Origin: a virus
Lineage: Duplodnaviria; Caudoviricetes
Reading direction: 5' to 3' (one strand)
Virus record (IMG/VR): IMGVR_UViG_3300032335_000777
Coordinates: 1-64,000 of that record
DNA length: 64,000 bases
Numbering within the stretch: the stretch's first letter is position 1; every line of letters begins with the position of its first letter. The position numbers were made by a program, and so were the translations under genes. Below the pieces are notes generated by a model, which saw only the letters and a program-made list of their open reading frames with translations, was not told the origin of the DNA and did no database searches. Shown here piece by piece: positions 16,977 to 33,644 of the stretch.

Positions 16977-19900
16977 ATGCCTAACAGCTACACCTACTTC
17001 AAACTACAAGTAAAAGAATGGTTTATTGACAACATTCCTACAAGTTTACGCATATTGGATGTGGGTCCTGGAAATGGAACTTACTCAGAGCTCATAAGAA
17101 ACTTAGGATACAGAATCGATGCTGTTGAGATATGGGCTCCTTATGTAGAACAGTTTAACTTACGACAGAAATATGACAATGTTTATGTGGGAGACATTTT
17201 AGAATTTGATGTTGAACCGTATGACTTTATTATTCTGGGAGATGTATTAGAGCACATCCACACAGATCAAGCCAAAGAGCTTCTTGAAAAGTTTAGCATC
17301 ATGAATAAGAAATTCATGGTTGCAGTGCCATACATGATGCCTCAAGATGGAGATGAGTATGGGAATACATACGAGACACATCATCAAGAAGATCTTACAC
17401 CAGATGTAATGCTAGAGAGGTATCCAAACTTGGAAAAGCTATATGACAATCAGTGGTATGGTTACTACGTAAATAAAAACAATGTTTGGGACAAGGCTTA
17501 CGTTCTGTATGCTACAGACAGCTATAAAGAAACTGTGCAAGCCTGTGTAGATTCTATTAGAGCATTTAGCAATTTGAATGTCATTGTCTACATGATGAAT
17601 TCAAATGCAAAGATTGATGGGGCTCTAACTTTACGATGGGATTGTAACATAAAAGAACTGGGTCAACAAAAATACATTGATAGATCTAGCTCAGATATTT
17701 ACAACATCCTTATACAGCGTCCACTAATTGTAAAGGATGCTTTGAAATATTCCAATGTTGTAGCTTATGTAGATAGTGATAGTGTTGCCACTAGATATGT
17801 TGATAATATATTTGACTATTTCCCAATCAAATCAACATATCCATACTTCACAGAAGGGATATACGATTGGATGATTATAAATGGAAGAGGTGCTACAGAG
17901 AGTAGAGAAGATCTTTCCACAACACTAGAGCATCCAGCATGTGAACTGTTTGGTGTAAATCAATACATTAGAAAAACTTACAGACAGACAGGATACTTTG
18001 TAGCTGGTAAATGGTGTCTTGAATTTTTAGATGAGTGGACTTGGATGTGTAATCATCCTAAAATTTTAAAAAATCCTCAATGGTATGCACCATATCATGA
18101 AGAAACTATAGCCAATGTACTGTTGTGGAAATGGAAAGCCTTCAAAGGACTTCCATACATGTACATCAATGGTTCTTTAGATGTAATAAACAACATTACA
18201 TTCGTTGGGACAAAGCAACATGTCAAACACTTTGTTGCTACACCTGCACATGAGGACCAATTATTCTTTTATCATGGGGAGAAGGATGCTAATGTAATGC
18301 GTCAAATGATACATTTTCAGAAGAAGCGTCCTAGAGTTTTGTTTGTAGCTCCTCACTTATCTACAGGAGGGATGCCTGCTTTCTTGTTGAGAAGAATTCA
18401 AGCTTTGCAAGCACATACAAACATAGACATCTATGTTGTAGAATATGCCAATCACAGCAATGACTACGTTGTTCAGAAAAATCAGATAAAGCAACTAGTG
18501 AAACACTTCTGGACGTTAGATGAGAACAAGATGGAGTTGATAGACATCATTAAGAATAACAGAATTGATGTTGTCCATGTAGAAGAAATGGTGGAGGATG
18601 GTTGGAACAACTGGCCAGAAGAACTAAGAGAATCTTTATATGCAGAGGATAGAAGTTGGAGAATGGTTGAGACATGTCACAACATCATATTCAAGCCAGA
18701 CATTGAAAAAAGATTTCATCCAGATGCTTATGCATTTTGTACCACTCATCACCTCAAGACATTTAAGAACATGCCTTCTACAAAGAAGGTGATTGAGTTT
18801 CCAATAGAGAAAAGAGAAAGTGAATCTGTTGATTTAGGAGAAGGTAAGCATGTACTGAACGTGGGACTATGGACTCCTGGTAAAAATCAAAAGGAGGCAG
18901 TGGAGCTAGCCAAACAAATGCCAGATGTAAACTTCCACTTTGTAGGAAATCAAGCTGGAAACTTCCAGGACTATTGGGAACCTATAATGAAAGATGTTCC
19001 TACAAATGTACACGTGTGGGGAGAAAGAAATGATGTAGGTGCGTTCATGCAAGCAGCTGACTTGTTCTTATTCAACAGCACATTTGAATGCAACCCATTA
19101 GTTATTAGAGAAGCTATAGGTTATGGACTTCCCATCATAGCTCGTAACCTCCCTCAGTATGGAGACATGTTCACTCCCTACATCACTGATTTAGATGTTT
19201 CTAGGCTAAAGCAACAGGTGTATGAGCAATTGGAAAATCCAAAGACATATACCATTCCCGAAAATCAAGAGTTTGAATTTGCCATTGCACATGTAGAACT
19301 ATACAAAGAAGCGTGTGAACAACCTACTCGTTCTAGTGAGGACATTTCAATTTCCCATTATTTCATCAATGAACCATTTCTTGAAATTAAAGGAAGATCA
19401 AAAAGTAAATTCACTATAAAGTACTATGATGAAGAAGGTGTTTGTCATTTCAACAGTGTAATAGGTGTACAAAACTGGGTGAGGCTCAACAGAAGATGGT
19501 ACACTAAATGGAACATTAAGATATGGAAAGACAATGATTTGTATTACAACTACACACTAGACTACACGGGAAAGCGTGTGTACATAGCTTTTGATAGTAA
19601 GTCTTTAGGAGATACAATAGCTTGGATGCCGTACGTACTTGAGTTCAAGAAGAAACACAACTGCGATGTTGTTGTGAGTACATTCAAAAACTTTTTATTC
19701 AAAGATGTCTATCCAGAGATTGAGTTTGTAGAACCAGGATCAGGTGTAGGTGACATACTTGGAATGTACACCGTAGGATGGTTTTACAATCCTGATAAAG
19801 AACCAGCTTTATGTAATACCATACCACTTCAAAAAGCTGCTACAAACATATTAGGTCTTGACTATCAAGAGATTAAACCAAGAATTGACTTTAAGCCTGG

Positions 19901-20396
19901 TGACAATTTGTACGGTAAATATGTTACAATAGCCACCAACTCTACAGCTGGTTGCAAGTTCTGGACTAAAGAAGGTTGGCAGTTAGTAATTAACTTTCTA
20001 AACGACAATGGATATAAAGTTATCAATGTGTCAAAGGAAAAGAATCCTTTTGATAACTGTGAACAAATAGACGATACGTCTATGGAAAACACTATGAATG
20101 TCATTCACCATAGCCATTTGTTCATAGGATTATCTAGCGGTCTTAGTTGGTTAGCTTGGGCATTGAATAAAAAGGTGGTGATGATATCAAACTTTACAGA
20201 ATCAGACCACGAATTCCAATGCATTAGAATTGACAAAAAGGATGTGTGTAATGGATGTTGGAACAAAGCTGAGAACAGATTTGATGCAGGAGATTGGGAC
20301 TGGTGTCCTTTACACAAAGGGACAGATAGACAGTTTGAGTGTCATCAGAAAATAGATGCTAGTCAGGTTATTTCTGCCGTCTTATACCATATTTAA
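16977..20396 (+). CDS. Four-domain glycan enzyme: SAM methyltransferase + GT-A + GT4 + Aah/TibC-type O-heptosyltransferase
   Basis: LDVGPGNG; YVDSD; PHLSTGGMP...KNQ...ECNPLVIREA; SLGDTIAW, GLSSGLSWLAW, CNGCW...CP...FEC iron-finger. Confidence 0.85.
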   Translation: MPNSYTYFKLQVKEWFIDNIPTSLRILDVGPGNGTYSELIRNLGYRIDAVEIWAPYVEQFNLRQKYDNVYVGDILEFDVEPYDFIILGDVLEHIHTDQAKELLEKFSIMNKKFMVAVPYMMPQDGDEYGNTYETHHQEDLTPDVMLERYPNLEKLYDNQWYGYYVNKNNVWDKAYVLYATDSYKETVQACVDSIRAFSNLNVIVYMMNSNAKIDGALTLRWDCNIKELGQQKYIDRSSSDIYNILIQRPLIVKDALKYSNVVAYVDSDSVATRYVDNIFDYFPIKSTYPYFTEGIYDWMIINGRGATESREDLSTTLEHPACELFGVNQYIRKTYRQTGYFVAGKWCLEFLDEWTWMCNHPKILKNPQWYAPYHEETIANVLLWKWKAFKGLPYMYINGSLDVINNITFVGTKQHVKHFVATPAHEDQLFFYHGEKDANVMRQMIHFQKKRPRVLFVAPHLSTGGMPAFLLRRIQALQAHTNIDIYVVEYANHSNDYVVQKNQIKQLVKHFWTLDENKMELIDIIKNNRIDVVHVEEMVEDGWNNWPEELRESLYAEDRSWRMVETCHNIIFKPDIEKRFHPDAYAFCTTHHLKTFKNMPSTKKVIEFPIEKRESESVDLGEGKHVLNVGLWTPGKNQKEAVELAKQMPDVNFHFVGNQAGNFQDYWEPIMKDVPTNVHVWGERNDVGAFMQAADLFLFNSTFECNPLVIREAIGYGLPIIARNLPQYGDMFTPYITDLDVSRLKQQVYEQLENPKTYTIPENQEFEFAIAHVELYKEACEQPTRSSEDISISHYFINEPFLEIKGRSKSKFTIKYYDEEGVCHFNSVIGVQNWVRLNRRWYTKWNIKIWKDNDLYYNYTLDYTGKRVYIAFDSKSLGDTIAWMPYVLEFKKKHNCDVVVSTFKNFLFKDVYPEIEFVEPGSGVGDILGMYTVGWFYNPDKEPALCNTIPLQKAATNILGLDYQEIKPRIDFKPGDNLYGKYVTIATNSTAGCKFWTKEGWQLVINFLNDNGYKVINVSKEKNPFDNCEQIDDTSMENTMNVIHHSHLFIGLSSGLSWLAWALNKKVVMISNFTESDHEFQCIRIDKKDVCNGCWNKAENRFDAGDWDWCPLHKGTDRQFECHQKIDASQVISAVLYHI

Positions 20397-20583
20397 TCCA
20401 TCTATACCATATACGCTCATGGATGTAATATTGTACAGGTTTCCATAAAAGCTCAGCTACACCAAATGCAGCTCCTGCTTTTATAGATCCTGTCACTACA
20501 AACATTGTCACCATACCAATGAGTGTACTAATTAGACGATAGCTGATAGTTTTAGCTATGTGTCTTTTTTTTTCTACAATCAT
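20368..20583 (-). CDS. DUF2061 membrane protein
   Basis: RHIAKTISYR...YYIHERIW. Confidence 0.8.
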   Translation of the reverse strand: MIVEKKRHIAKTISYRLISTLIGMVTMFVVTGSIKAGAAFGVAELLWKPVQYYIHERIWYRWIKYGIRRQK

Positions 20584-20966
20584 AGCTTACCCTCAGCCTT
20601 CATTTGCTCTCTAATCTTTGTAGCAGAAATGTAATGTATTTCTGTAGGAGGAACGTGTTCTATAACATCATATCCAACACCTCTACCAATGTTGATGGAT
20701 TCAATGTTAGGGATTTTAATTATTTGAAGTTTACCAGCCTGCACTAAGTCTTGTAGTTCTTTGCCAAGATTCATCAAGATTTCTTGAGCTGTCCAAGGAT
20801 TTCTTTCATCCACAGGGACATCACGAACACATAGTAATACCTTCTTTCCCTCATCGAGAGCTTGGTCAATCAACCATCTATGACCTTTGTGCCAAGGTTG
20901 CCATCTCCCAATGAACATTGCCCACTCTCCTGATTTGTGTTCAGCTTTTGCCAATACGTTTTGCAT
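20580..20966 (-). CDS. HxGH nucleotidyltransferase (cytidylyltransferase-like)
   Basis: IGRWQPWHKGH, NP, ISATKIR. Confidence 0.8.
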   Translation of the reverse strand: MQNVLAKAEHKSGEWAMFIGRWQPWHKGHRWLIDQALDEGKKVLLCVRDVPVDERNPWTAQEILMNLGKELQDLVQAGKLQIIKIPNIESINIGRGVGYDVIEHVPPTEIHYISATKIREQMKAEGKL

Positions 20967-21709
20967 AATAATAATCCTTCGTTTAGTGAATATTTAGGAG
21001 ACCATCTAGGCATCCAGTTTGTTTGATTGCTACATGTCTGCATCTGATAACCATCTGGTATTGCTGACTCATCATGGTAAATATATGGGATGCCCAACAC
21101 ATCTGCAACATGCTCAAATGTGTGTGCTATTCCAAGTCCTACATCATATTTGTTTCCAGTAAAGCTTTCATAGTTTACAAATGCGTGCAGGTTAGCTTCT
21201 ATTACATCCTCTACATATATGAAGTCACGCTTAGGATGGCCAGGAAAAAGTTTAGCATCACCCGCTTTGAACATCTGGTATGCCATAGATGCCATTCTAC
21301 CTTTGTGTTCTTCTCCAGGACCATAGACATTAAAGTATCTAAGAGCCACTCCACCATTGCTGATAACGTATTGCTCAGCTACATACTTACTCCATCCATA
21401 TAGATTAGATGGATGTACACCGTTCGTACCATACGAAGCTGCTGAAGATGAATATATGATGGACTTGTTGTTTGCCTTGCACCAATCAGTTAAAATCTTT
21501 GTAGACTCAAAATTAACTTTCATGATGTAGTTTACATTTGTCTCAAGAGTGTTAGAGCAAGCTCCTACATGGAATACAACATCTGGGTTTTTTTCATCTA
21601 ACCACTCAAGACTAACATGAAAATTTTCATTAAGTTCTAGTGGATTGCTAAAACATTTCTTCAACTGTCCAGCTATGAATCCATTGGTTCCTGTAATTAG
21701 CACTCTCAT
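20870..21709 (-). CDS. hldD: ADP-L-glycero-D-manno-heptose 6-epimerase-like SDR
   Basis: GTNGFI, HVGACSNT, SSAASYG, NLYGWSK, LRYFNVYGPGEEHKGRMAS, RDFIYVED. Confidence 0.85.
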   Translation of the reverse strand: MRVLITGTNGFIAGQLKKCFSNPLELNENFHVSLEWLDEKNPDVVFHVGACSNTLETNVNYIMKVNFESTKILTDWCKANNKSIIYSSSAASYGTNGVHPSNLYGWSKYVAEQYVISNGGVALRYFNVYGPGEEHKGRMASMAYQMFKAGDAKLFPGHPKRDFIYVEDVIEANLHAFVNYESFTGNKYDVGLGIAHTFEHVADVLGIPYIYHDESAIPDGYQMQTCSNQTNWMPRWSPKYSLNEGLLLCKTYWQKLNTNQESGQCSLGDGNLGTKVIDG

Positions 21710-22449
21710 GGTGTAGCTACTCCTCGTTTTGATACAACAATAGCACTCATCTGATTAGCAAATGTGATGGAGATGCTAGGGTCTTGTGTTTCTAAATACT
21801 TTGTTACAAATGCTGCTAAAAAAGTATCACCAGCTCCTGACACATCTATTGTTTCTTTTGGACTTGGGGAATGATATAAGTTGTTAATGTATCTAGCTCC
21901 ATTAGATCCAAGTGTAACTATTGTTTTACTCTTGAGCTGATCTAACGACTCTTTATTAGCTATGTATTCAGATTCATTAACCTTGATGAAATCAAACATG
22001 GACAGGTGTTCAACGTCTAGTTTTTTCTTAGTATCAATTATTGAAAACTTTGCAAGTTTTGATAGTTCAACTAAATCATCTTTAGCTAAGAATCCTTTGT
22101 TGTAGTCACTAATCACTAGAGCGTCAGCATCTTCTATGTCAGAGAGTAGTTCTTTTGATATGTGTATTCTAGTTAAGTGTATGTCATCATCCACTCTAAG
22201 GAATAAGTGATTAGTCTTCTTGTCCACATATCTAGTTTTAGTCATCTTCTCCTTGCTGTGGTAGAAAGATATTTTAAAACTGGGAATGATAGCATTGATG
22301 TTCGCAACAACATTACCAGCCATACCTTGGTTTTCTACAGTGTGTAAAGGATTGAATACAGGAACAGGGGCTTCTGGACTAAGCCTCTTGCACTCTCCAT
22401 ACACAAAAACATCATGGCAGAGTTCTCCTATCACTACTATCTTTTTCAT
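21706..22449 (-). CDS. hldA: Heptose-7-phosphate kinase (HldE kinase domain, PfkB family)
   Basis: RLSPEAPVP, GMAGNVVANI, KTR, LRVD, SDYNKG, DVSGAGDTF. Confidence 0.88.
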   Translation of the reverse strand: MKKIVVIGELCHDVFVYGECKRLSPEAPVPVFNPLHTVENQGMAGNVVANINAIIPSFKISFYHSKEKMTKTRYVDKKTNHLFLRVDDDIHLTRIHISKELLSDIEDADALVISDYNKGFLAKDDLVELSKLAKFSIIDTKKKLDVEHLSMFDFIKVNESEYIANKESLDQLKSKTIVTLGSNGARYINNLYHSPSPKETIDVSGAGDTFLAAFVTKYLETQDPSISITFANQMSAIVVSKRGVATP

Positions 22450-22825
22450 ATTCAAGGATTGATGTAGTTGAGACATTTGGTATTCTATCAAAGAAAGAAA
22501 CTTCCTTAACGTACTCAATGCCTATAATTCTTTTGTCTTTGTAGTCAGACCCTATAACCATTACATCTGGTTGGTATTCTTTTATTTGATTTATTAGTTC
22601 TTCTTCACTACCAAATCCTACAACATCATCTACAAATCTTAGTGATTTCAAGAACTCCATTCTATTTTTAAAACAATTAAAGGGTCTACTAGAACCCTTC
22701 AATTCTTTTATTCTATCATCTGTATCTATCCCCACTCTAACACTTCCTATTGTCGATGCATGCTTTAGAAGATTCAAATGACCAATGTGTAACACGTCAA
22801 AGGCTCCATTAACCCACACTCTCAT
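22412..22825 (-). CDS. hldC: Heptose-1-phosphate nucleotidyltransferase (HldE domain II)
   Basis: NGAFDVLHIGH, LKG..RP, GSDY, STT. Confidence 0.88.
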   Translation of the reverse strand: MRVWVNGAFDVLHIGHLNLLKHASTIGSVRVGIDTDDRIKELKGSSRPFNCFKNRMEFLKSLRFVDDVVGFGSEEELINQIKEYQPDVMVIGSDYKDKRIIGIEYVKEVSFFDRIPNVSTTSILEYEKDSSDRRTLP

Positions 22826-23124
22826 ACCTCTTCTATTCTTTTTGTCTTGTCACAAATCAAAAGATCATAGGAAGGCTTGTCATTCATTATAACATCTTCA
22901 TACTTACATCCCCAGCGCATGAGTTGTTCACGTGTTAGTTTTGTGTGGTCTGTGTTTGACTTCCTGCCACGTGCTGTCCAATAAATAATGCAATGGCCCT
23001 CGTCATAGAGCTTGTTCACTTTGTCAATGTTATCATACAGAGGAGTTGAGTTAATGTAGTCGCTACCATTTGTATGACAGATTGTTCCATCTATATCTAC
23101 ATATATTGTTAGTCTCCCTTCCAT
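22822..23124 (-). CDS. Small HAD phosphatase
   Basis: DIDGT, WTAR, KP..D...D motifs. Confidence 0.8.
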   Translation of the reverse strand: MEGRLTIYVDIDGTICHTNGSDYINSTPLYDNIDKVNKLYDEGHCIIYWTARGRKSNTDHTKLTREQLMRWGCKYEDVIMNDKPSYDLLICDKTKRIEEV

Positions 23125-23465
23125 ACTCTGTAGCTATCTGAGTCAAAATGTTCTGTGCTAACTTCGAATATCTCACCATCTTCTAGTGCTTCTAGTTGAT
23201 GTGGATGAAATGGCATAATGGTAATCACCTCACCCTTTTTCAAAAACTGTTTGTGTAAACTACCATTCTCAAGATCTATCCAGCTGTAAATAAAGTTACC
23301 ACTATTCACATACCAGGTTTCCTGTTTTTTCTTGTGATAATGCATGCTGAACTTCTTACCAGCATCAAACACTAACAGCTTACCACAATACAGAGATGAA
23401 TTATATATCCACAACTCATGTCCCCAGCCTTTCTCAACTCTTTTGATTTCTGACATAGTTATCAA
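23109..23465 (-). CDS. Cupin sugar-phosphate isomerase-like protein
   Basis: KGWG.E, SMHYH....ETW, H.L, EVST. Confidence 0.8.
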   Translation of the reverse strand: MITMSEIKRVEKGWGHELWIYNSSLYCGKLLVFDAGKKFSMHYHKKKQETWYVNSGNFIYSWIDLENGSLHKQFLKKGEVITIMPFHPHQLEALEDGEIFEVSTEHFDSDSYRVWKGD

Positions 23466-23865
23466 TTAGTTTAAGGCAATCATTTAAAGATGTAGCTGAT
23501 GTATTTATATGCAATATATTCTCATCTGTAGGAAGTTCAAAGTCTTGGACATGGAAATTTTCTCTACCCCTTTGATCTGTGTAAGTTAAATATACCCATG
23601 TTACATCCTTTGTAAGACTATTGAGATAGTCTCTAGCTTCTTTGTAAGGATAGACAAGAGATAGCGTTACGTCATCACCCTCAGTATTCATATAATGAGC
23701 AATGTCGCTAGCCCTGTTCAAGTTTCTAATACGTCCTTCTCTGCTGTAATCTTTGTTAGCAAATAGCTCTCTTAGCTTATCCCCATCAATGTTTCTGTAT
23801 GATAGAAACTCTTTTGCTATTGTTGTCTTACCACTATGTGGTTGTCCAAATAGTACAATTATCAT
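23434..23865 (-). CDS. cysC: Adenylyl-sulfate (APS) kinase
   Basis: GQPHSGKTT, IDGD.LR, DYSREGR..N, FELP. Confidence 0.8.
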   Translation of the reverse strand: MIIVLFGQPHSGKTTIAKEFLSYRNIDGDKLRELFANKDYSREGRIRNLNRASDIAHYMNTEGDDVTLSLVYPYKEARDYLNSLTKDVTWVYLTYTDQRGRENFHVQDFELPTDENILHINTSATSLNDCLKLIDNYVRNQKS

Positions 23866-24680
23866 TTGCTATATCTGAATTGATCGTAGAACCACTTGTA
23901 GTTGTTGTAAATCCAATCTGACACATCTTTACCTAGAAGATGTTTAGCTCTAGAAGGAACAGGCTCAAGTTTTTTTCTTATAACGTGATCTCCAAACTGA
24001 CCATACACTTCATCATCTTCTTTGGTGACTTGTTCAATATTGTCAAAGTCGTGCTTGTAATGTGGTATGTCAAGATATTGGTATATCTTCTTCATCTCTA
24101 GTTCAGGATAGAGACACAAGTCTTCGAACTTAACGAATAAAATTTTATCTGAATATCCAAGTCTGAATAACTCGCTAAGTCTTTCAATAGCCAAACCTAC
24201 AGGTTGAGACTGTGCCCAAATGTCTATACGTTTAGGAACTGTTGTTCCACTCATTTGTGCCCAGTTAAGAATAGGATTTGCTTTGTCAGGATTCTTTCTA
24301 TAGTTCTTCTCCATAGAAGAGAAGATGTCTCTAAGATCCCTAACCATGCATATAACCTTTGGTTCAGCTTGAATAAAGTTTAGGAAGTCATAATGTATTC
24401 CCCATCCACGTGACTTATCTATGACATACTTCTTATCTGTAATAGCATTGTAATACGCATCCATACCACCCTTACAAAAAGCTTGGAAGCCAGACTTCAT
24501 TAACTCTGGGTCCTGAGCTTTGAACTCAGGAGAGTCTGTGTAATTAGCTCTAGCTGCAAACACAAGCTCCAATACACCAGATGTAGGTGTAGCATATATG
24601 TCTGGATTTTGAGCAAATATATTTTGCAAAAGCGTAGACCCAGCTCTTGGTAAAGAGCTCTGATAAAATATTTTTTCCAT
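23862..24680 (-). CDS. PAPS-dependent sulfotransferase
   Basis: 5'-PSB LPRAGSTLL, DKSR, 3'-PB VRDLRDIFSS, FEDL. Confidence 0.85.
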   Translation of the reverse strand: MEKIFYQSSLPRAGSTLLQNIFAQNPDIYATPTSGVLELVFAARANYTDSPEFKAQDPELMKSGFQAFCKGGMDAYYNAITDKKYVIDKSRGWGIHYDFLNFIQAEPKVICMVRDLRDIFSSMEKNYRKNPDKANPILNWAQMSGTTVPKRIDIWAQSQPVGLAIERLSELFRLGYSDKILFVKFEDLCLYPELEMKKIYQYLDIPHYKHDFDNIEQVTKEDDEVYGQFGDHVIRKKLEPVPSRAKHLLGKDVSDWIYNNYKWFYDQFRYSK

Positions 24681-24681
24681 G

Positions 24682-25563
24682 TTAGTTTTGGTTTTTAATA
24701 GAAGCAATCACTTTATCTATATCAAAGATTTCAGACTCAGAGTTGTAAGGGAACTCTAGTAGATTTCCTGTGATGTCAAACTTTTGAATGTATGAATGTT
24801 TAAGTTCAGGTTTCTTAGTTAGTGGATTAGCCACAATGTTATCATGAACGTCATGACCAAATACTACAGGAGTGTTGGCTATCCATAGCACTGTAGAAGG
24901 CTTATTGAGAGCTGCTGCTGCATGGTGTCCAAAGCTATCCATTAATAGTCTCTTGTTGCTAAGCTCAATCAATACAGCCAGTGCTCTGAAGTTGTCAGAA
25001 ATAGTCAGAGTTCCTTCGTAACCAATCTGATCTTCTCTTCTCATGTGGACAATGTTGTATTGATTTTTAAATTCTTCAATGACAGATTGTACAACATTTG
25101 AAGGAATGTCTCTAGCCCAAGAATATTTAAGATCTTGTCCTTGTGCACCTCCGTTTGTTTGTAATAAAAGAATGGGTCTATCAGAATAAAACTTCTGAGA
25201 AAAGAATATGCGTTCCCTCTCTGTGATGTAAAGTTTTGGCAATATATCTTCAGGAGGATTGATGTCAAACATCTTTGCCCATGTCTGAACCAAGTGTTCA
25301 TTCTGCATTAGGTATTCTGTTTGCAGATATGGATCGTGTGCAAACACTTTAAAATCTTTACCCTCAATAAAATCTTGATAGAAATATTGAGCTTGTCCAA
25401 ATGCAAATGAGCGGTCTACAAAGGGGTTGTTTAAAAACACCTCTGGATAACCGCTCATTACAATTAATTGACTATTAGGATGTTGAGACTTGATAGCCTC
25501 ACATACAGGAGTGGCTAGTATGCACTTGCCTATCCCACCGTTAATTTGGAATATAATATTCAT
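24682..25563 (-). CDS. GT9 (heptosyltransferase-like) glycosyltransferase
   Basis: GGIG.I..TP, NNPFVD, DSFGHHAAAAL.KP. Confidence 0.75.
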   Translation of the reverse strand: MNIIFQINGGIGKCILATPVCEAIKSQHPNSQLIVMSGYPEVFLNNPFVDRSFAFGQAQYFYQDFIEGKDFKVFAHDPYLQTEYLMQNEHLVQTWAKMFDINPPEDILPKLYITERERIFFSQKFYSDRPILLLQTNGGAQGQDLKYSWARDIPSNVVQSVIEEFKNQYNIVHMRREDQIGYEGTLTISDNFRALAVLIELSNKRLLMDSFGHHAAAALNKPSTVLWIANTPVVFGHDVHDNIVANPLTKKPELKHSYIQKFDITGNLLEFPYNSESEIFDIDKVIASIKNQN

Positions 25564-25578
25564 AGTTTGAGGTTTTTA

Positions 25579-25610
25579 CAAATGTAAACCTCATCCATAG
25601 AATAACCAAA
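25579..25610 (-). promoter_or_regulatory. Bacteroidota housekeeping-type promoter of heptose/sulfation operon
   Basis: Minus strand TTTG-N20-TACATTTG, exact consensus, 15 nt upstream of GT9 ATG. Confidence 0.75.
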
Positions 25611-25614
25611 TTAA

Positions 25615-25974
25615 TTATTCCTCTTCTACAGACTCTGTAGTTGTGGTTGTTGTAGTAGTTGATGGGTTGTAAGAAAGCACCGCTGATGCCAAATCATCTA
25701 GCAGAGATTGATCTAAATCTGATACATTCACTCTGAAAGATTTTGCATTAGGTTCACTAGGTAACCAGTCAGAAAATAACTCATAAAAGTTATTTATTGC
25801 ATGGTAAGTTTTCTCACCCTGATAATCCGCAGGTTTGTTAGCCCACACATCATCTACGACTAATTGAGCTTCAGTTTCGACAGCCTGAAAAGGAGCCTGT
25901 ACGTTCTGTGTGTCAGAAATTACTTGTACTGTTCCGAAACCAAAAATGTGGATGGTATTCCAAAGATTTGCCAT
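25615..25974 (-). CDS. Hypothetical protein with C-terminal poly-Thr
   Basis: 119 aa ending STTTTTTTTESVEEE. Confidence 0.7.
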   Translation of the reverse strand: MANLWNTIHIFGFGTVQVISDTQNVQAPFQAVETEAQLVVDDVWANKPADYQGEKTYHAINNFYELFSDWLPSEPNAKSFRVNVSDLDQSLLDDLASAVLSYNPSTTTTTTTTESVEEE

Positions 25975-25997
25975 TTTAATTTATTTTAAGTTTTTAA

Positions 25998-26005
25998 CAA
26001 ATATA
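25998..26005 (-). promoter_or_regulatory. Bacteroidota -7 element
   Basis: TATATTTG on minus strand 23 nt before ATG 25974; no clear -33. Confidence 0.45.
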
Positions 26006-26034
26006 CATTTTTTATTAAAGTTATTACTGTGTTG

Positions 26035-26511
26035 CTAGAAAGGACATAATGCTTGTAAATAAAAAACTATACCATCATCATTAATCCCAATTGAGTAAAG
26101 AACATATGAAGGTTCCCAATAATTTGTGAGTATAAGGAAATATCCTAAATTCCCAAGAATGGTAACATTTTGTATTTGCGTGCCAATTCCTAAATTCCCA
26201 CTATATGTTACGTTTTGTACTACAGTAAAAGGAACAAAACAAGTATCACCAACTATATCTCGCTCTGCTGACAATCCCATAGTTCTAATACTAGCATCTA
26301 AATTAGATTTTACAACTAATTGATTAGAAGACTTGGCTGCATACGAAGCAAATGATGTATTTATATTTACATAAGTGTCAGCATCAGCTTTAGTAATCTG
26401 CTCTGTGCTTACTGGAATGGTAGTCTTAGCAACAAATACATTATTATTCACTGCATTCTGTAAATTGTTAAACGATATAGTCTGATTATTTGCTAAGCCT
26501 GCCCAACTCAT
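26035..26511 (-). CDS. Fibre-associated virion protein
   Basis: 158 aa, ATGA overlap with fibre gene. Confidence 0.55.
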   Translation of the reverse strand: MSWAGLANNQTISFNNLQNAVNNNVFVAKTTIPVSTEQITKADADTYVNINTSFASYAAKSSNQLVVKSNLDASIRTMGLSAERDIVGDTCFVPFTVVQNVTYSGNLGIGTQIQNVTILGNLGYFLILTNYWEPSYVLYSIGINDDGIVFYLQALCPF

Positions 26512-29500
26512 AAGTTAAGTTTTTTAATTATGTTCTCAAGTTGTTCGATTCTTTCTTCCAACTTCATGATCTTGTAAATGTGAACCTGATGGTAATCAAC
26601 ATTGTAATAACCTTTCTCATCTGTTCGTATGGTTTGTGGAAGAACTTCTTTAACATTTTGTGCAGAATATCCAATGTTAATAACACTAGCATCTCCTTCT
26701 TTCCAATTAAAGTAGATTGGATTGATAGAGTCACAAGATCCTACAGTGCAGTGGATATCTTTTAAACGCTCATCAGAAGATTCGAAATAAGACGTAGCCC
26801 ACATGCAACCTGTAGCACAGAAGTTATTCCAATAGAATGTTGCAGAAACACCTCCTGATATACCTGCTCCTCCTCCACCAGAACAGTTTCCTGATATGTT
26901 ATTTCCACATCCACCAAGTACTGAAGAATGAGTACCTGAAGCTGTATTAGCTCTACCACCCGCAACTACTGCTTGAGCTCCAGAAGCAGTGTTGGCCCAA
27001 CCACCACCAACTGTCGAACGATATCCTGATGCACTACTACCAACACCTCCTGCAATAACACTTTCACTACTTGAAGTATTAAATGCTCCACCGCCAATAG
27101 CATTCCAATATCCTGAAATAGTGTTATTTCTTCCTCCTGCAATTGTTGACTGACAACCATTTATTGTATTTAGGCAACCACCACCAATTGTTGAGAATCC
27201 AGCATTTATAACACAATTATTTCCACCTCCTCCAACAAAAGAACGAATTGCTGAAGCAATATTGCTTATACCACCGCCTACAGCTGAATGATTTTGGTTA
27301 GCGGTATTACCTTGCCCTCCTGCCACTACAGACATGTAACCTGATGATGTGTTACTATCACCACCTCCTACAAAAGACCAGTTCCCCGTTGCACTATTTG
27401 ATGAGCCTCCTGCAACTACAGGTCTATATGTAGCATTTGCTGTATTACCCGTACCACCGCCTACGAAAGAACCATTACCTGCTGATACGTTTGCTTGACC
27501 TCCTGCTATAACACCATAAGTTGCTGATGTAGTGTTATTTAAACCACCTCCAATAGTTGAACAAACTCCTGAAGCTGTATTTCCTCTACCACCACCAACT
27601 GTTGAAGTCCCGCCAGTAGCACTATTTATATATCCACCACTTATAGTTGAAGCTACCCCACTAGCACTATTTAATCTACCCCCACCAACTGTACCACAGT
27701 TACCTGCTACGCCATTAACGCTACCTCCTGAAATTGTAGAATAAGTACCACTAGCAGTACTTGCATAACCACCTGCTACATTAGAGTATACACCAGAAGC
27801 AGTGTTAGCAAGTCCTCCTGCAACTGTTGAACTACCACCACCACATGCTTTATTAGAAGAGCCTCCACCAACTGTACCACAGCTAGCTGATGCAATATTA
27901 CTAATACCTCCACTAACAACAGCTCTTAATCCTGATGCAGTGTTGCCCTGTCCACCACCAACTGTTGCTGAATAGTTAGAGGCAGTATTACTATTTCCCC
28001 CACCTACTGTTGCAAACCAGTTGGTGTTTGTTGTGTTTGCACAACCACCACCAATAGTATTCCAGCATTGACTTGCATTGTTATTTTGACCTCCACTAAT
28101 AACAGAACGAGTTCCACTTGCGGTATTACTGCTACCTCCTCCAACAAATGCTCCATATCCACTTGCGGTGTTACTATTACCACCTACTACTGAAGAAAAA
28201 TATCCACCACTTGCTGTATTAGATTGACCACCACCTATGAACCCTCTATTACCACTAATACAGTTTGTCGTGCCTCCACCTATTGTAGACCATTGACCAT
28301 TCGCAGTGTTATTCTGACCACCTCCTATTGTTGAGCAGTTTCCTAAAGCATTGTTACCACTACCTCCACCTATAGTTGATACTGCACCACTTGCTGTATG
28401 TGAAACACCACCTCCTATAGTTGATGCGTGCGCATTAGCTGTATTCCCAAAACCTCCTGATACAGTTGCTCTGTAAACAGATGCTGTGTTGCATCCACCT
28501 CCACCAACAGTTGTACATTCAGCAGAAGATATATTACAAAGTCCTCCTCCAATAACTGAAGCAGTTCCTGTACCTCTGTTTTGGAAACCTCCACTGATTG
28601 TAGAAAGTCGACCTGCTGTGTGTAAAGTAGTAGGAGCTACAGAAAAAGTTGTACCATCAAACGTGCCACCTGATGTATTGTTACCCACACCACCTGCAAT
28701 AGTGACTCCTGCTACACAAGTAGCACCTAAACTATTACATATCCAATTACAAATACCACCACCTACAGTTGCTTGATTTCCATTTACACAGTTTCTGTAT
28801 CCCCCTGAAACAGTTGATCCATATCCTAAACTACTATTAAAATATCCTCCTGATACTACAGAATAATAGCCTGATGCTGTTGATTTGTTACCCCCTCCGA
28901 TAAAAGCAAATCTACAAGCCACACCCCCACAACCACCTGCAATAGATGACCAAATTCCAGAAGAAGTATTTCCTTGACCACCTCCAACAGTTGAACAAGC
29001 TCCTGATGCTGTGTTTGTTTGTCCTCCACTAACTGTTGAACGATAACCTGAAGCAGTATTGCTATCTCCCCCTCCAACAAAGCTTCTACCACCGCTAGCT
29101 GTATTTGATACCCCACCTGCAATAGTTGAAAAGTATGAACCACTTGCTGTATTGTTATTACCACCGCCTACTGTACTCGCACCACTTCCTGTAGCTCTGT
29201 TACAAATACCACCACCAATAGTTGATTGAGTTGATGTAGCGCAGTTTGTAATACCGCCACCTACAAAAGCATAAGTAGCAGAGGCTAAGTTTGAATTACC
29301 TCCTGCAATAACAGAAATATATCCTGATGCAGTATTATTAACACCAAATGCTACTGAAAATCCACCACTTGCTGTGTTGGTCCTACCTCCGACAACAGAA
29401 CAAGCTCCTGAAGCAACTGCTCCACAACCACCTACAACGGTTGAAGCATTTCCACTTGCAATGTTACCGCATCCACCACCTATAAAAGAGAAATTTCCAG

Positions 29501-32500
29501 ATACAGTGTTTTGTGCTCCCCCTGTTAAAGAAGAACATTTACCTGTTACAGAATTCAAGCTACCTGCAAGTATGGCTGAATAAGAATTACTAACTGTGTT
29601 TGTACCACCAACTACAACTGCTGATTCACTGGCAGCACCATTTAAAACATTTTTATATCCACCACCAATAAAGTTATATCCTCCTGATACAATACAGTTA
29701 CATATACCTCCAGCAATAGTTTGCCAAACACCTGTGTTAATAAGATTAAAACATCCACCACCAATAAATGATTGACAACCTGCATCGTTTCTATTGCAAA
29801 AACCTCCACCTACAACATTACCTAGTCCACTTGCTCTATTGTCATTACCACCACCTATTGTAGAACAAGCACCCGATGCTGTATTACTTACACCTCCTCC
29901 AACTACAGAGTGATTGTTTGATGATAAGTTTTGTTCTCCACCTGCTATAGTAGAAGCGTATCCACTTGCTGTGTTAACTTGACCTCCTGCCACAAATGAC
30001 CTTGGACCTGTGGCTCTATTTTGAAAACCACCACCTATCGTTGAATAAATACCTGCTGTGCAAACTGTTGGAGCTACTGTTGGTACACCATAAAGATTCC
30101 ATGTTCCACCTATCGTATTATTCCCAACACCACCTGCGATAGTTGCTCCTGTTACACAACAAGTTGCTAATGTGGTGCATATTTTATTCCAAGAACCACC
30201 ACCAACAGTAGACATGTCACCACAAGCGTGATTACACAAACCACCACCTGCAAATGAATATCTACCACTTGCTGAGTTTTGTTGTCCCCCACCCACTGTT
30301 GAATACCCACAGTTTGCTACGTTAAAATAACCACTACCTATAAACGTGCCCGCTGAAGTAGATGCATTACCTATGCCTGCTCCTACAAAAGCAAGACCGT
30401 TTGAAGCTGTGTTACAATTTCCACCCCCTACAAATGAACAAGCTCCTGATGCAACGTTAGTTAAACCACCAGCTACTGCTGCTCTTGCTCCTGAAGCTGT
30501 GTTTTGCTGACCCCCACCTACTGTTGACATATAGCCACTAGCAGTATGTAAATAGCCTCCACTTACTGTAGAGCAATTACCACTTGCTGTATTACATCTA
30601 CCACCTCCTATTGTAGATGCGTATCCTGAAGCCGTGTTTAAATTACCACCACTTACTGTTGAACAAGGGAAACATGCTCTATTAACACTACCACCACCAA
30701 TAAATGAATAATTCCCTGATGCAGTGCTGCAAAAACCACCTGACAAGGTTGAAAATAAACCACTTGCAGCATTAAATTCTCCTCCTCCTACAAATGTAGA
30801 TGCATTAGTTGCTCTATTACAGTTACCAGCAACTACTACTGATCTTGTTCCTGTAGCACAGTTTGCACATCCACCACCAATGAAAGAGGCATAATTTCCT
30901 GATACAGTATTTAAACACCCTCCAGCAATTGTAGAAAAAGCACCTGAAGCTGTATTAGATTGACCTCCTACTACAGAAGAACAATTTCCTGAAGCATTAT
31001 TACCTACCCCGCATCTAACAGAAGAATTTGTTCCTGCACCAAGGATGATGACAGCACTTGATCCAACGTTTATACCACTAGATCCAGATGTACCTGCTGT
31101 ACCTGATGTACCAGCAGTTCCTGATGTGCCAGAAGTTCCTGCATTACCAGACGTACCACTTGTACCTGCTGTACCACTGGTTGCACTACTTCCACTTGTT
31201 CCACTAGTTCCTCCACTACCATTAGTAGCTGATGTTCCAGAAGTTCCAGAGGTGGCAGAAGTTCCACTAGTTCCACTACTTCCTGCTGTACCGCTAGTTC
31301 CAGTTGTACCAGACGTACCAGTTGTGCCACTAGTTCCAGAGGTTCCACCTGTTCCATTAGTGCCACTTGTACCTGAACTTCCAGATGTTGCACTAGAGCC
31401 AGATGTACCAGAAGTTCCCGTAGTACCAGATGTTCCTGTAGTCCCACTAGTTCCGCTCGTACCTGTTGTACCACTTGATCCACTAATACCAGAAGTACCA
31501 GTGGTTCCTGATGTTCCTGTAGTTCCAGATGTACCAGAAGTGGAAGATGATCCAGAAGATCCTGAGCTTCCACTAGTACCTGATGTTCCAGAAGGAGGAG
31601 TGAATGTGGTTTGTGCGTATGAATAGTTACTTGTTCCTTCTGTATAGAATGTAATGTTTTGATTTACTGTTCCTGTGTGCTCTACATATAATTGACAGAA
31701 TAATCTGTCAGTAGAGTTCATTCCAGTTTGAGGTAGGAAAAGATCTGTGAAAAATTCTTTGATGACATTGGAAGTCATCACCTCAGTGTCAAGGTTAGTA
31801 GTTCCAAGAAGCGTTACACTTCCACCTGTAGAGTCACATTTGTAAAGCTCTACATCCACCTTTAAACTAACATTGGCATTTATTGAGAAGTGTGTTACCC
31901 AAGCCCAAAGTCCTGAAGGCAAGCTTATTACACCTGGATTGTTTGAATCTGTAGCATACGTAGCAAGTAGGGTTCTAGTATTAGGTGAAACACTTGCCAC
32001 TACAGTTTGCTCTGCTCCACCTGTAGCAGAACCAGACCATTGCTTATATGTAGGAGTGCCTATCGCACTGCTAGTATTTAATGATTGATTTAGATAGTAT
32101 ACAAGTCCTCCAGATACACCATTCACACCTGAGGAACCTGAGGAACCTGACGTACCTGATGTACCTGTTGTACCAGAGGTTCCTGTGGTTCCTGAACTAC
32201 CACTGCTGCCAGTAGTTCCACTAGAGCCACTAGTACCACTAGTTCCACTAGTACCACTGGTTCCATCAACTCCACTTGTTCCGCTGGTTGCAGATGTTCC
32301 AGAAGTACCACTAGTACTTGACGTTCCACTAGTACCGCTTGTACCCCCAGTACCATCTGTTGCAGAAGTACCACTTGTACCACTACTGCCAGATGTTCCT
32401 GTACTACCACTTGTGCCTGATGTCCCTGTGGTACCAGAAGAACCACTGGTGGCACTTGTACCACTAGTACCTGACGTACCTGCTGAACCATCTGTTCCAG

Positions 32501-33644
32501 AGCTTCCTGAAGTACCAGATGTACCTGAAGAACCAGAAGTACCGCTAGTTCCCCCCGTTCCATCAGTACCAGAAGTACCGCTTGTACCAGAAGTTCCACT
32601 AGTCGCAGATGTACCAGAGGTACCTGTCGTACCACTTGTACCAGTAGTACCGCTAGTACCGCTAGTTGCAGATGTACCACTTGAACCAGACGTACCTGTA
32701 CTACCGCTAGTACCAGAAGTACCTGTTGTTCCAGAAGTACCTGTTGTGCCAGACGTTCCTCCAGTACCATCTGTTCCTGATGTGCCAGTTGTACCACTGC
32801 TACCGCTTGTTCCTGTAGTACCTGATGTGCCACTGGTTCCGCTTGTTCCACTTGTACCGCTACTACCAGCTGTACCACTGGTTCCTGGATAATAACCAAG
32901 AATGTTTATAATGTCAGAAGCTGTTATTGGAGAAGCAGATGTAACTAGTCCTTTACCATTCACTGTAAACTTTAGAGGAGTGATGGTGTTGTATGGGTTT
33001 GGATTAACATTCTGCAATAGCAGAGTGATGTTACTTCCTGTGAATCCTGATCCAACAACATCACCAATGAAAGTTATTGGTAGTGGTGGTATAGTAACTG
33101 GTACAGGAGTGATGTTTGTAACTAAGCCTTTTGCGTTCACTGTTACAATTGGAATAGTGTTACCATTACCAAATGTTCCAGAGGCAAAGTTTACAGTGGC
33201 TAGCGTCATAGCTGCTACACCAGGACCTGAAGCTGTTGCATCTCCAGAGAGTCCAGTCATGTAATTGCCAGCTGGCTGATATGCTGTTGAATCTAATGTT
33301 CCATCACCCTTTACAAACTGTGAAGATGTTCCACCAGTGGTGATGTGTCTAGCAGCTTGTACGTTTCCTGTAAATGCTAGTGTAAAGTTTCCACCAATGG
33401 TGGTGTTTTGTATTAATGCACCACCAAGTTGTACAGGTTGGAATGGTGTAGGCTGAATCAAGCCATTTGTAAATGCGTATCCCACCCCAGCATTCTGAAA
33501 TGCTTGGTTAATCTTTATAATAATTGCCTCAAGGGTGTCATTGTTTTGTACACCTATATAAAGAAGACTCTCACCTGTGTAGAACACACAAGTGGAGTTG
33601 AGGAATAATGGGCAAGGTTCAGATCCGCAATATACTTCTGCCAT
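26508..33644 (-). CDS. Giant tail/capsid fibre: Gly-Thr-Ser collagen-like blocks, 15-aa beta-helix repeats, C-terminal peptidase S74 chaperone
   Basis: [10 protein letters not shown] fibre repeats, (G-T/S-S/T)n, N.ASG..S.V.GG repeats, SSDERLK...IGYSAQ.V. Confidence 0.85.
26870..31020 (-). repeat. Roughly 85-90 copies of a 15-aa Cys/Gly-rich beta-helix repeat
   Basis: Consensus N-x-A-S-G-x-x-S-x-[VI]-x-G-G-x-x in translation; count estimated from length. Confidence 0.85.
31070..31590 (-). repeat. Gly-X-Y (GTS) collagen-like repeat block 2
   Basis: 9-bp-period degenerate repeats encoding GTS/GTT/GSS. Confidence 0.9.
32123..32887 (-). repeat. Gly-X-Y (GTS) collagen-like repeat block 1
   Basis: About 250 aa of GTS/GTT/GSS triplets. 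Confidence 0.9.

Follow-up and report, generated by a model that had tools for sequence, protein, structure and literature searches.

What does a phage do with enzymes that resemble those activating heptose and sulfate, encoded next to the gene of its tail fibre? We addressed this question for positions 16,977 to 33,644 of the IMG/VR virus record IMGVR_UViG_3300032335_000777, within a window that is the first 64 kb of this 109,983-bp record, the completeness of which is estimated at 95%. A preliminary description of the sequence had proposed that the phage makes its own heptose donor and coats its virion, the fibre being the likely substrate, with methylated and/or sulfated heptose glycans; every gene that it named was indeed found in its place. 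We observed that the locus encodes a fusion protein of 1139 amino acids (aa) ending in a domain of the bacterial autotransporter heptosyltransferase (BAHT) family, to which TibC and Aah of E. coli, which attach heptose to adhesins, belong, that the catalytic residues of this domain are conserved and that enzymes of this type co-occur with collagen-like fibres. We consider it rather probable that the phage O-glycosylates its own tail fibre in the cytoplasm by means of this fusion and of helper enzymes, with ADP-heptose and 3'-phosphoadenosine 5'-phosphosulfate (PAPS) that it would make itself. The interpretation first given to the locus was borne out in part: the BAHT domain is genuine and co-occurs with the fibre, but SGG repeats could not be retained as the conserved partner, the heptose and sulfation modules are accessory, and GmhA is missing. 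The features that carry the argument are the four domains of the fusion and the fibre.

16977..17486, plus strand: S-adenosylmethionine-dependent methyltransferase, domain 1 of the fusion (aa 1-170; Pfam Methyltransf_23/11, E = 1.7e-8)
17487..18326, plus strand: predicted GT-A fold, domain 2 (aa 171-450; AlphaFold2 model with a predicted local distance difference test score, pLDDT, of 83; Foldseek)
18327..19376, plus strand: GT4-family glycosyltransferase of the GT-B type, domain 3 (aa 451-800; Pfam Glycos_transf_1, E = 5.6e-12)
19377..20396, plus strand: TibC/Aah-type BAHT domain with a four-cysteine iron finger, domain 4 (TIGR04414; TibC, PDB 4RAP)
26508..33644, minus strand: 2378-aa tail fibre (Pfam Collagen, E = 3e-42; Peptidase_S74; UspA1, PDB 3PR7)

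The methyltransferase, GT-A, GT4 and BAHT domains follow one another in a single open reading frame (ORF; 16977-20396, plus strand). What had been described as an Aah/TibC-type transferase with a four-cysteine motif does belong to this family and does have the cysteines, as confirmed with TIGR04414 and 4RAP, but it is the C-terminal domain of the fusion and not the product of a separate gene. Residues 810-1135 matched TIGR04414 (hepto_Aah_TibC) with 266.4 bits for a cut-off of 200; the match spans positions 27-371 of the 374 in the model, and a search of the genome gave 269.5 bits. The comparison with TibC (PDB 4RAP) gave an E value of 2e-46; the models of lipopolysaccharide (LPS) heptosyltransferases reached 16-28 bits only. 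Residues that TibC requires (PMC4358343) were located by alignment to 4RAP, in the window domain and in 141 diverse relatives from a library of 1.8 billion proteins (n = 142). The equivalents of Asp110, the catalytic base, of Thr226 and Lys230, which bind phosphate, of Trp305, which binds the sugar, and of Phe368 are identical in the window domain; those of Asp110, Lys230 and Trp305 are found in all 142 members and that of Thr226 in 134. The predicted 1Fe-0S iron finger (CNGCW..WCP..FEC) is aligned to Cys339, Cys342, Cys358 and Cys370 of TibC, and each of these cysteines is present in 141 of the 142 members. Position 300, occupied by a proline in TibC, is a serine in the window domain as it is in Aah; this is the stereoselectivity site, and Aah with its serine accepts L,D-heptose (PMC4358343). 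A serine at this site fits with the presence of a predicted HldD-like epimerase in the same locus. Judged by its sequence, the domain belongs to the BAHT family and its active site is intact; we assume for it neither a TibC-like ring nor a strict specificity for ADP.

The TibC-TibA and Aah-AIDA-I pairs of E. coli (TIGR04414; PDB 4RAP/4RB4; PMC4358343) have in common with the phage system the enzyme family, its catalytic and donor residues and the four-cysteine finger, and also a layout in which the enzyme gene adjoins that of a large, repetitive, serine-rich surface protein. The predicted enzyme of the window differs from TibC and Aah in being encoded by a phage, in its C-terminal position in a fusion with three other enzymes, and in its short thumb and the threonine at the place of Arg286. 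In addition, the gene conserved next to it codes for a collagen-like trimeric fibre and not for the beta-helix of a type Va autotransporter; no autotransporter is encoded, the BAHT neighbour in the window being a fibre with collagen-like and beta-roll parts. The BAHT domain has relatives in at least 296 viral contigs, and it matches 1444 clusters formed at 50% identity. Among its best 150 relatives, 134 are longer than 450 aa, and 15 of the 150 have between two and four BAHT domains in tandem; outside E. coli the BAHT family therefore consists mostly of multi-domain proteins.

Counts of related loci refer, here and below, to the best 80 of the 296 viral contigs with BAHT relatives, which are 57-83% identical. 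Of these loci, 79 have the GT4-BAHT fusion, 64 the GT-A domain and 40 the methyltransferase domain. The matches of the GT4 domain include RfaG. For the GT-A domain the Pfam search gave no match, and the top Foldseek matches were a GT6 alpha-1,3-galactosyltransferase, blood-group transferases, WbbM and UGGT (E about 1e-6; template modelling (TM) score 0.45-0.5). Its D-x-D motif reads DSD, with D96 and D98 invariant in 13 relatives, and from the structural model this domain is probably a retaining glycosyltransferase, its nearest structures being retaining transferases of the GT6/GT8 type.

The fibre, which is the only collagen-like ORF of the 110-kb genome, is made of an N-terminal anchor common to many relatives, two collagen-like shafts (aa 254-514 and 704-859) separated by a globular insert, a beta-roll (aa ~906-2255) and a C-terminal S74 intramolecular chaperone. 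Pfam Collagen matches six stretches of it. We counted eight Gly-X-Y runs of 6-24 triplets each, 117 triplets in total, in which X is threonine in 77% of the cases and Y serine in 68%, and no proline occurs. The repeat region that follows has about 1350 residues, 184 of them serines, in about 90 repeats of some 15 residues (period 14-16). Two parts of it match the UspA1 head (3PR7) with E values of 7e-18 and 4e-16, and we therefore regard it as a YadA-type beta-roll, the left-handed fold in the heads of trimeric autotransporter adhesins. The TVSGG and ASG repeats noticed at first sight are real and are located in this beta-roll; over the fibre we counted 35 S[TV][IV][SAG]GG, 36 ASG and 21 SGG motifs. 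One and the same fibre thereby holds both candidate types of acceptor, collagen-like shaft and beta-roll. As a side observation, a 110-kb relative (IMGVR_UViG_3300042564_002372; L086, L096) has two fibre genes about 43 kb apart, with a shared N-terminal anchor and about 300 collagen-like residues each.

We looked for collagen-like ORFs, defined by at least eight consecutive Gly-X-Y triplets, around the related enzymes. Of the 54 loci whose flank measures 6 kb or more, 36 have such an ORF downstream of the enzyme gene and convergent with it (median distance 1.8 kb); on the upstream side, 9 of 48 loci have one. The neighbouring fibres are arrays of Gly-Thr/Ser-Ser, up to 3122 aa long and with 85% of Gly, Ser and Thr, whereas beta-roll repeats are limited to about 10-13 of the 80 loci. 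Because the 80 loci are related, independent lineages were also inspected. Microcystis phage Mel-JY01 encodes a 1226-aa protein with an N-terminal GT4 and a C-terminal BAHT domain, and an unannotated frame of 1016 codons, which encodes Gly-Thr/Ser-Ser repeats, lies about 1.7 kb upstream of its gene. In megaphage LR756501, about 3.6 kb separate the gene of a 743-aa GT4-BAHT protein from a collagen-like ORF of 699 aa, and the pair of BAHT and Gly-Thr/Ser-Ser collagen-like frame is found, within 5 kb, in a Bacteroides-binned contig too. Among near-complete relatives identified through the fibre anchor, BAHT was present in the three that have collagen-like fibres and absent from the four without collagen repeats in the fetched locus. 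The co-occurrence of transferase and Ser/Thr-rich fibre, for which the preliminary description had proposed a test, was thus observed in the related loci as well as in Mel-JY01 and the megaphage. The partner proposed then, SGG-bearing repeats, is confined to the few loci with a beta-roll; the comparison of sequences points instead to the proline-free collagen-like shaft as the conserved partner of GT4-BAHT enzymes, in an association that looks strong although not absolute.

The record of Mel-JY01 (PP395634.1) deserves a separate remark. Two minus-strand hypothetical proteins are annotated over its collagen-like frame (L082:2-3049, plus strand), the plus-strand annotation covers only the last 534 bases of the frame, and the record apparently starts inside the collagen-like gene.

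If the enzymes do glycosylate proteins, the main acceptor might still be the UspA1/YadA-like beta-roll, or other virion or host proteins, and not the shafts. Known BAHT enzymes indeed modify serines located where beta-solenoids turn (PMC4358343), the iron finger, which in TibC grips the helix of TibA, is conserved, and the fibre offers a long beta-roll with many candidate serines that matches the UspA1 head. However, collagen-like repeats and not beta-rolls are the common feature of the GT4-BAHT loci, and neither Mel-JY01 nor the megaphage shows such a beta-roll near its BAHT gene. It is possible that the beta-roll serines are the acceptor in this particular fibre, but the pattern across the family would not be explained thereby, and we find this alternative as a whole unlikely.

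The other genes of the locus bear on the sugar that would be transferred. Five of them form a discrete block beside the transferase.

20870..21709, minus strand: HldD-like ADP-heptose 6-epimerase, 279 aa (TIGR02197, E = 1.8e-47, 162 bits, below the cut-off)
21706..22518, minus strand: HldA-like heptose-7-phosphate kinase, likely start ATG 22449 (TIGR02198, E = 6e-34, 117 bits; PfkB)
22412..22825, minus strand: HldC-like heptose-1-phosphate adenylyltransferase (TIGR02199, E = 8e-28, 97 bits; HxGH motif, HIGH)
22822..23124, minus strand: 100-aa HAD phosphatase, candidate substitute of GmhB (weak HAD_PNKP and capsule-phosphatase matches; DxDGT motif, DIDGT)
23109..23465, minus strand: 118-aa metal-binding cupin, mannose-6-phosphate-isomerase-like (Cupin_2, Lyx_isomer and MannoseP_isomer matches)

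The HldD-like protein has the motifs GxxGxxG (GTNGFIAG) and YxxxK (YGWSK). Like the pathway of ADP-L-glycero-beta-D-manno-heptose, the block contains homologues of the kinase, the adenylyltransferase and the epimerase; in the phage, GmhA is absent, a 100-aa HAD protein stands for GmhB and a cupin is added. Four of the five steps of ADP-heptose synthesis are encoded, with an epimerase in addition, and the full five-enzyme set is not, no SIS/GmhA gene being found in the 110-kb genome. The idea that the phage makes its own heptose donor is supported by these three homologues and the HAD protein, but weakened by the missing GmhA and by scores below the cut-offs. The reaction of GmhA is the seven-carbon analogue of that of phosphomannose isomerase, which makes the cupin a reasonable candidate to replace it. 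This protein has metal-binding cupin motifs and weak matches to mannose-6-phosphate and lyxose isomerases, and its family is large (>1000 homologues), conserved and often labelled mannose-6-phosphate-isomerase-like. By analogy, we propose it as a candidate sedoheptulose-7-phosphate isomerase in the place of GmhA. The neighbourhoods of cellular cupins are mixed, with heptose genes in two of six loci and an eRF1 neighbour in two others, and for this reason we put the isomerase forward as a hypothesis.

One of these neighbourhoods belongs to a metagenome-assembled genome (MAG) of Thaumarchaeota (JACAFS010000024.1; L138:7703-11128), where genes for HAD, cupin, Mpo1-like, HldA-like, HldC-like and short-chain dehydrogenase/reductase-type dehydratase/epimerase proteins stand in a row. 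Four of its proteins (HAD, cupin, HldA-like and HldC-like) share 42-49% identity with those of the phage, and the cluster could be a heptose pathway that dispenses with GmhA, or viral DNA included in the bin.

The complete cassette (cupin, HAD, HldC, HldA and HldD) is present in three of the 80 loci (L003, L006 and L008) and in one near-complete relative, and in relatives the HAD and cupin genes travel with it. Two near-complete relatives with BAHT and collagen-like fibres have neither the kinase nor the sulfotransferase, which indicates that the heptose and sulfation modules are accessory. An apparent HldD remnant in two loci (L004 and L005) was considered as a deletion scar and rejected, as it is an overlap in an alternative frame with the 5' end of the nucleotidyltransferase gene. 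Three MAG contigs with close relatives of the transferase were binned to Bacteroidota (Sediminibacterium, Bacteroides and Lutibacter), which is a weak clue to the host. Full-length HldA/HldE-like kinases are encoded in the Sediminibacterium and Bacteroides MAGs (329 and 312 bits) and none was found in the Lutibacter MAG, so that, as far as this weak binning goes, the supply of heptose by the host may vary.

On both sides of the cassette lie genes connected with sulfation.

20368..20583, minus strand: 71-aa DUF2061 membrane protein, its start overlapping the stop of the nucleotidyltransferase gene (PF09834, 54.8 bits)
20580..20966, minus strand: 128-aa NMNAT-like HxGH nucleotidyltransferase (PF01467 and NMNAT models)
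23434..23865, minus strand: CysC-type adenosine 5'-phosphosulfate (APS) kinase, 143 aa (PF01583, E = 3e-9; P-loop, DGDxxR, VYPY)
23862..24707, minus strand: PAPS-dependent sulfotransferase, likely start ATG 24680 (Sulfotransfer_3, E = 1.4e-15; PRAGST, RDxRD)

The genes for the NMNAT-like nucleotidyltransferase and for DUF2061, which the preliminary description had not listed, also belong to the locus. In relatives that have the sulfation genes without the heptose cassette, the CysC and NMNAT-like genes are adjacent, and in P0274 the two are fused, with 54% identity to the CysC of the window and 61% to its nucleotidyltransferase. Since the two are adjacent or fused elsewhere, they form a unit of two parts, and in the window the heptose cassette lies between them, precisely at the junction. 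CysC-nucleotidyltransferase fusions of 265-281 aa are found in many metagenomic sequences. The genome has no ATP sulfurylase (PF01747), and by analogy with PAPS synthases the role of sulfate adenylyltransferase may fall to the NMNAT-like enzyme; the occurrence of the fusions suggests an unrecognised minimal PAPS synthase. As in bifunctional PAPS synthases, an APS kinase is linked or fused to a nucleotidyltransferase of the HxxH superfamily, to which ATP sulfurylase also belongs, and accompanied by a sulfotransferase, but the putative partner is here a 128-aa NMNAT-like protein and not a recognisable ATP sulfurylase. We also considered CysC and the NMNAT-like protein as a NadR-like pair for the salvage of nicotinamide adenine dinucleotide; this is less likely, the kinase having the DGDxxR and VYPY motifs of APS kinases and occurring nearly always with a sulfotransferase. 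The DUF2061 gene is present in 18 of the 80 loci, nearly all with sulfation genes and sometimes at another position, and a link to sulfate handling is possible; a literature search on DUF2061 gave nothing useful.

Between the sulfotransferase gene and the fibre gene lie three more ORFs.

24682..25563, minus strand: 293-aa glycosyltransferase of predicted GT9 fold (AlphaFold2, pLDDT 85; Foldseek)
25615..26511, minus strand: two small ORFs, of 119 aa (poly-Thr tail) and 158 aa, between the enzymes and the fibre (no family match)

Pfam, NCBIfam and PHROGs assigned no function to any of the three. For the 293-aa protein, which has no Pfam or NCBIfam match, the top Foldseek hits were the GT9 structure 3TOV, WaaF (1PSW), WaaC and TibC (E = 5e-11 to 2e-6, probability 1.0, TM 0.56-0.64). 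The earlier assignment to GT9 holds for the predicted fold, a GT-B fold nearest to GT9 members, but sequence gives no family support; the protein would be a second heptosyltransferase-like enzyme of the locus. This ORF is present in 16 of the 80 loci, all of which have sulfation genes. The 158-aa ORF co-occurs with the fibre C-terminus among relatives. The 119-aa ORF (25615-25974, minus strand), kept in seven of the 80 loci, ends in a run of nine threonines followed by acidic residues; its product could be a glycosylation acceptor or a fibre accessory.

On the minus strand, the order of transcription is fibre, the two small ORFs, GT9-fold enzyme, sulfotransferase, APS kinase, cupin, HAD, HldC-like, HldA-like, HldD-like, NMNAT-like and DUF2061, and this operon is convergent with the gene of the fusion on the plus strand. 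A sigma-70 promoter scan gave sites no more frequent than in shuffled sequence and a terminator scan only a slight excess over it; neither was used. The locus has a lysis cassette on one side and structural and cargo genes on the other, in a window with a GC content of about 36%. A 4825-aa protein encoded downstream of the locus matches virion proteins of crAss-like and Cellulophaga phages and has a Dda-type helicase at its C-terminal end; from its sequence, the phage is an uncultured crAss-like phage. Megablast of the enzyme region against cultured phages gave no match.

The main rival outside protein glycosylation is that the enzymes remodel the host envelope (LPS core, capsule or surface glycoproteins), blocking superinfection or altering receptors, and that the proximity of the fibre is merely inherited gene order. 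Indeed GT9, GT4 and ADP-heptose genes are the classical toolkit with which the inner core of LPS is made, the GT9-fold ORF is no less similar to WaaF and WaaC than to TibC, RfaG is among the GT4 matches, and phage glycosyltransferases that alter host surface glycans are well known. However, TIGR04414 is an equivalog of protein-modifying enzymes and was matched above its cut-off, far better than the LPS heptosyltransferase models, and no flippase, polymerase, ligase, lipid-carrier enzyme or membrane anchor was found among the genes of the locus. Serotype conversion is moreover typical of temperate phages, and this is a crAss-like phage with an adjacent lysis cassette. Co-variation with collagen-like fibres in independent lineages would also be left unexplained, and we hold envelope remodelling to be quite improbable. 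Another reading, in which the genes for sugar and sulfate have no relation to the fibre and serve to modify phage DNA or small molecules, or to boost metabolism, is very improbable indeed: phages often glycosylate their DNA against restriction (an idea raised in PMC10202952), but the locus encodes neither a base-hydroxymethylating nor a DNA-binding enzyme, BAHT enzymes act on proteins, PAPS sulfotransferases and O-methyltransferases are not known to decorate DNA sugars, and the tight physical link to fibre genes would find no explanation.

We therefore return to glycosylation of the fibre, for which we infer the acceptor, the sugars, the order of the steps and the roles of the cupin and of the NMNAT-like enzyme as follows. 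Late in infection, the fusion would act on newly made fibre chains, the likeliest acceptors being the hundreds of serines and threonines in the two proline-free (Gly-Thr-Ser)n shafts, possibly together with serines of the beta-roll. The TibC-like domain would use ADP-heptose to attach heptose to Ser/Thr, the glycan would be started or extended by the two other glycosyltransferase domains of the fusion (GT4 and GT-A) and by the free-standing GT9-fold enzyme, and the methyltransferase domain and the sulfotransferase would decorate it. ADP-heptose would be produced by the cupin as isomerase, then by the HldA-like kinase, the small HAD phosphatase, the HldC-like adenylyltransferase and the HldD-like epimerase, and PAPS by the NMNAT-like nucleotidyltransferase with CysC. 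Dense glycans on Thr and Ser could stabilise and shield a triple helix that lacks proline and hydroxyproline, and alter the surface chemistry of the fibre. A more specific version, in which a TibC-type four-enzyme protein, retargeted from adhesins of bacteria to fibres of viruses, builds a methylated, sulfated heptose O-glycan that replaces hydroxyproline as helix stabiliser, with the cupin as isomerase and the NMNAT-like enzyme as ATP sulfurylase, is one that we advance only tentatively.

Several observations weigh against fibre glycosylation as we propose it. The known BAHT acceptors are folded beta-helices and not collagen-like chains (PMC4358343). The equivalent of Arg286, which contacts N1 of adenine in TibC, is a threonine in the window and differs between family members (T 46, R 33, V 23), which makes ADP-heptose uncertain as the donor across the whole clade. 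The beta-hairpin thumb is about 10 residues shorter, TibC residues 261-270 with Phe265 and Val266 being gone, and the domain belongs to a short-loop class; in TibC this thumb is required for the dodecamer (PMC4358343). All the heptose-pathway proteins are under the NCBIfam equivalog cut-offs, and most relatives, including the two near-complete genomes, lack the cassette. In 18 of the 54 loci whose flank is long enough, no collagen-like ORF lies downstream; a second megaphage encodes BAHT as a stand-alone protein, with no collagen-like ORF within 15 kb; and an unrelated complete phage of 36.8 kb has a collagen region of 777 residues and no BAHT. In addition, the related loci are mostly of one phage lineage, and their synteny may be largely inherited.

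Other known systems offer points of comparison. In work attributed to Freeman et al. (2023), glycosyltransferases of mycobacteriophages reportedly modify the phages' own virion proteins. These are phage-encoded transferases acting on their own structural proteins, as proposed here, but they act on the C-termini of capsid and tail-tube proteins, as one or two simple transferases with donors from the host, whereas the window has a multi-enzyme BAHT fusion, fibre acceptors and its own donor and sulfation genes. In BclA of Bacillus anthracis and in the cuticle collagen of Riftia, Thr-rich Gly-X-Y repeats are O-glycosylated, and in Riftia the glycosylated threonine takes over the stabilising role of hydroxyproline. 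Both contain proline, with other sugars and transferase families, whereas the phage shafts have none, with Thr at X and Ser at Y. In the streptococcal GtfA/GtfB system, a GT4 enzyme starts, in the cytoplasm, dense O-glycosylation of the long Ser/Thr repeat tracts of serine-rich repeat adhesins, and later transferases extend it, from which the GT4 domain of the fusion could be the initiator. Unlike that system, the phage locus has no GtfB-like partner and no accessory Sec system, and its transferases are in one chain with BAHT. To our knowledge, protein O-heptosylation is known only from bacterial adhesins, and virion glycosylation of phages only from a few mycobacteriophages; our literature search found no description of phage BAHT enzymes or of glycosylated collagen-like phage fibres.

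The presence of its own ADP-heptose cassette and of a serine at the stereoselectivity site makes the window the most informative example for the question of the donor. It also presents two testable cases of non-orthologous replacement, of GmhA and of ATP sulfurylase, and in Mel-JY01 there is a cultured carrier in which the central claim is directly testable. If this claim is true, the BAHT family would have found a new use in a large and widespread clade of phage fusions paired with collagen-like fibres, and there would be a general answer to how proline-free collagen-like fibres of viruses are stabilised or shielded.

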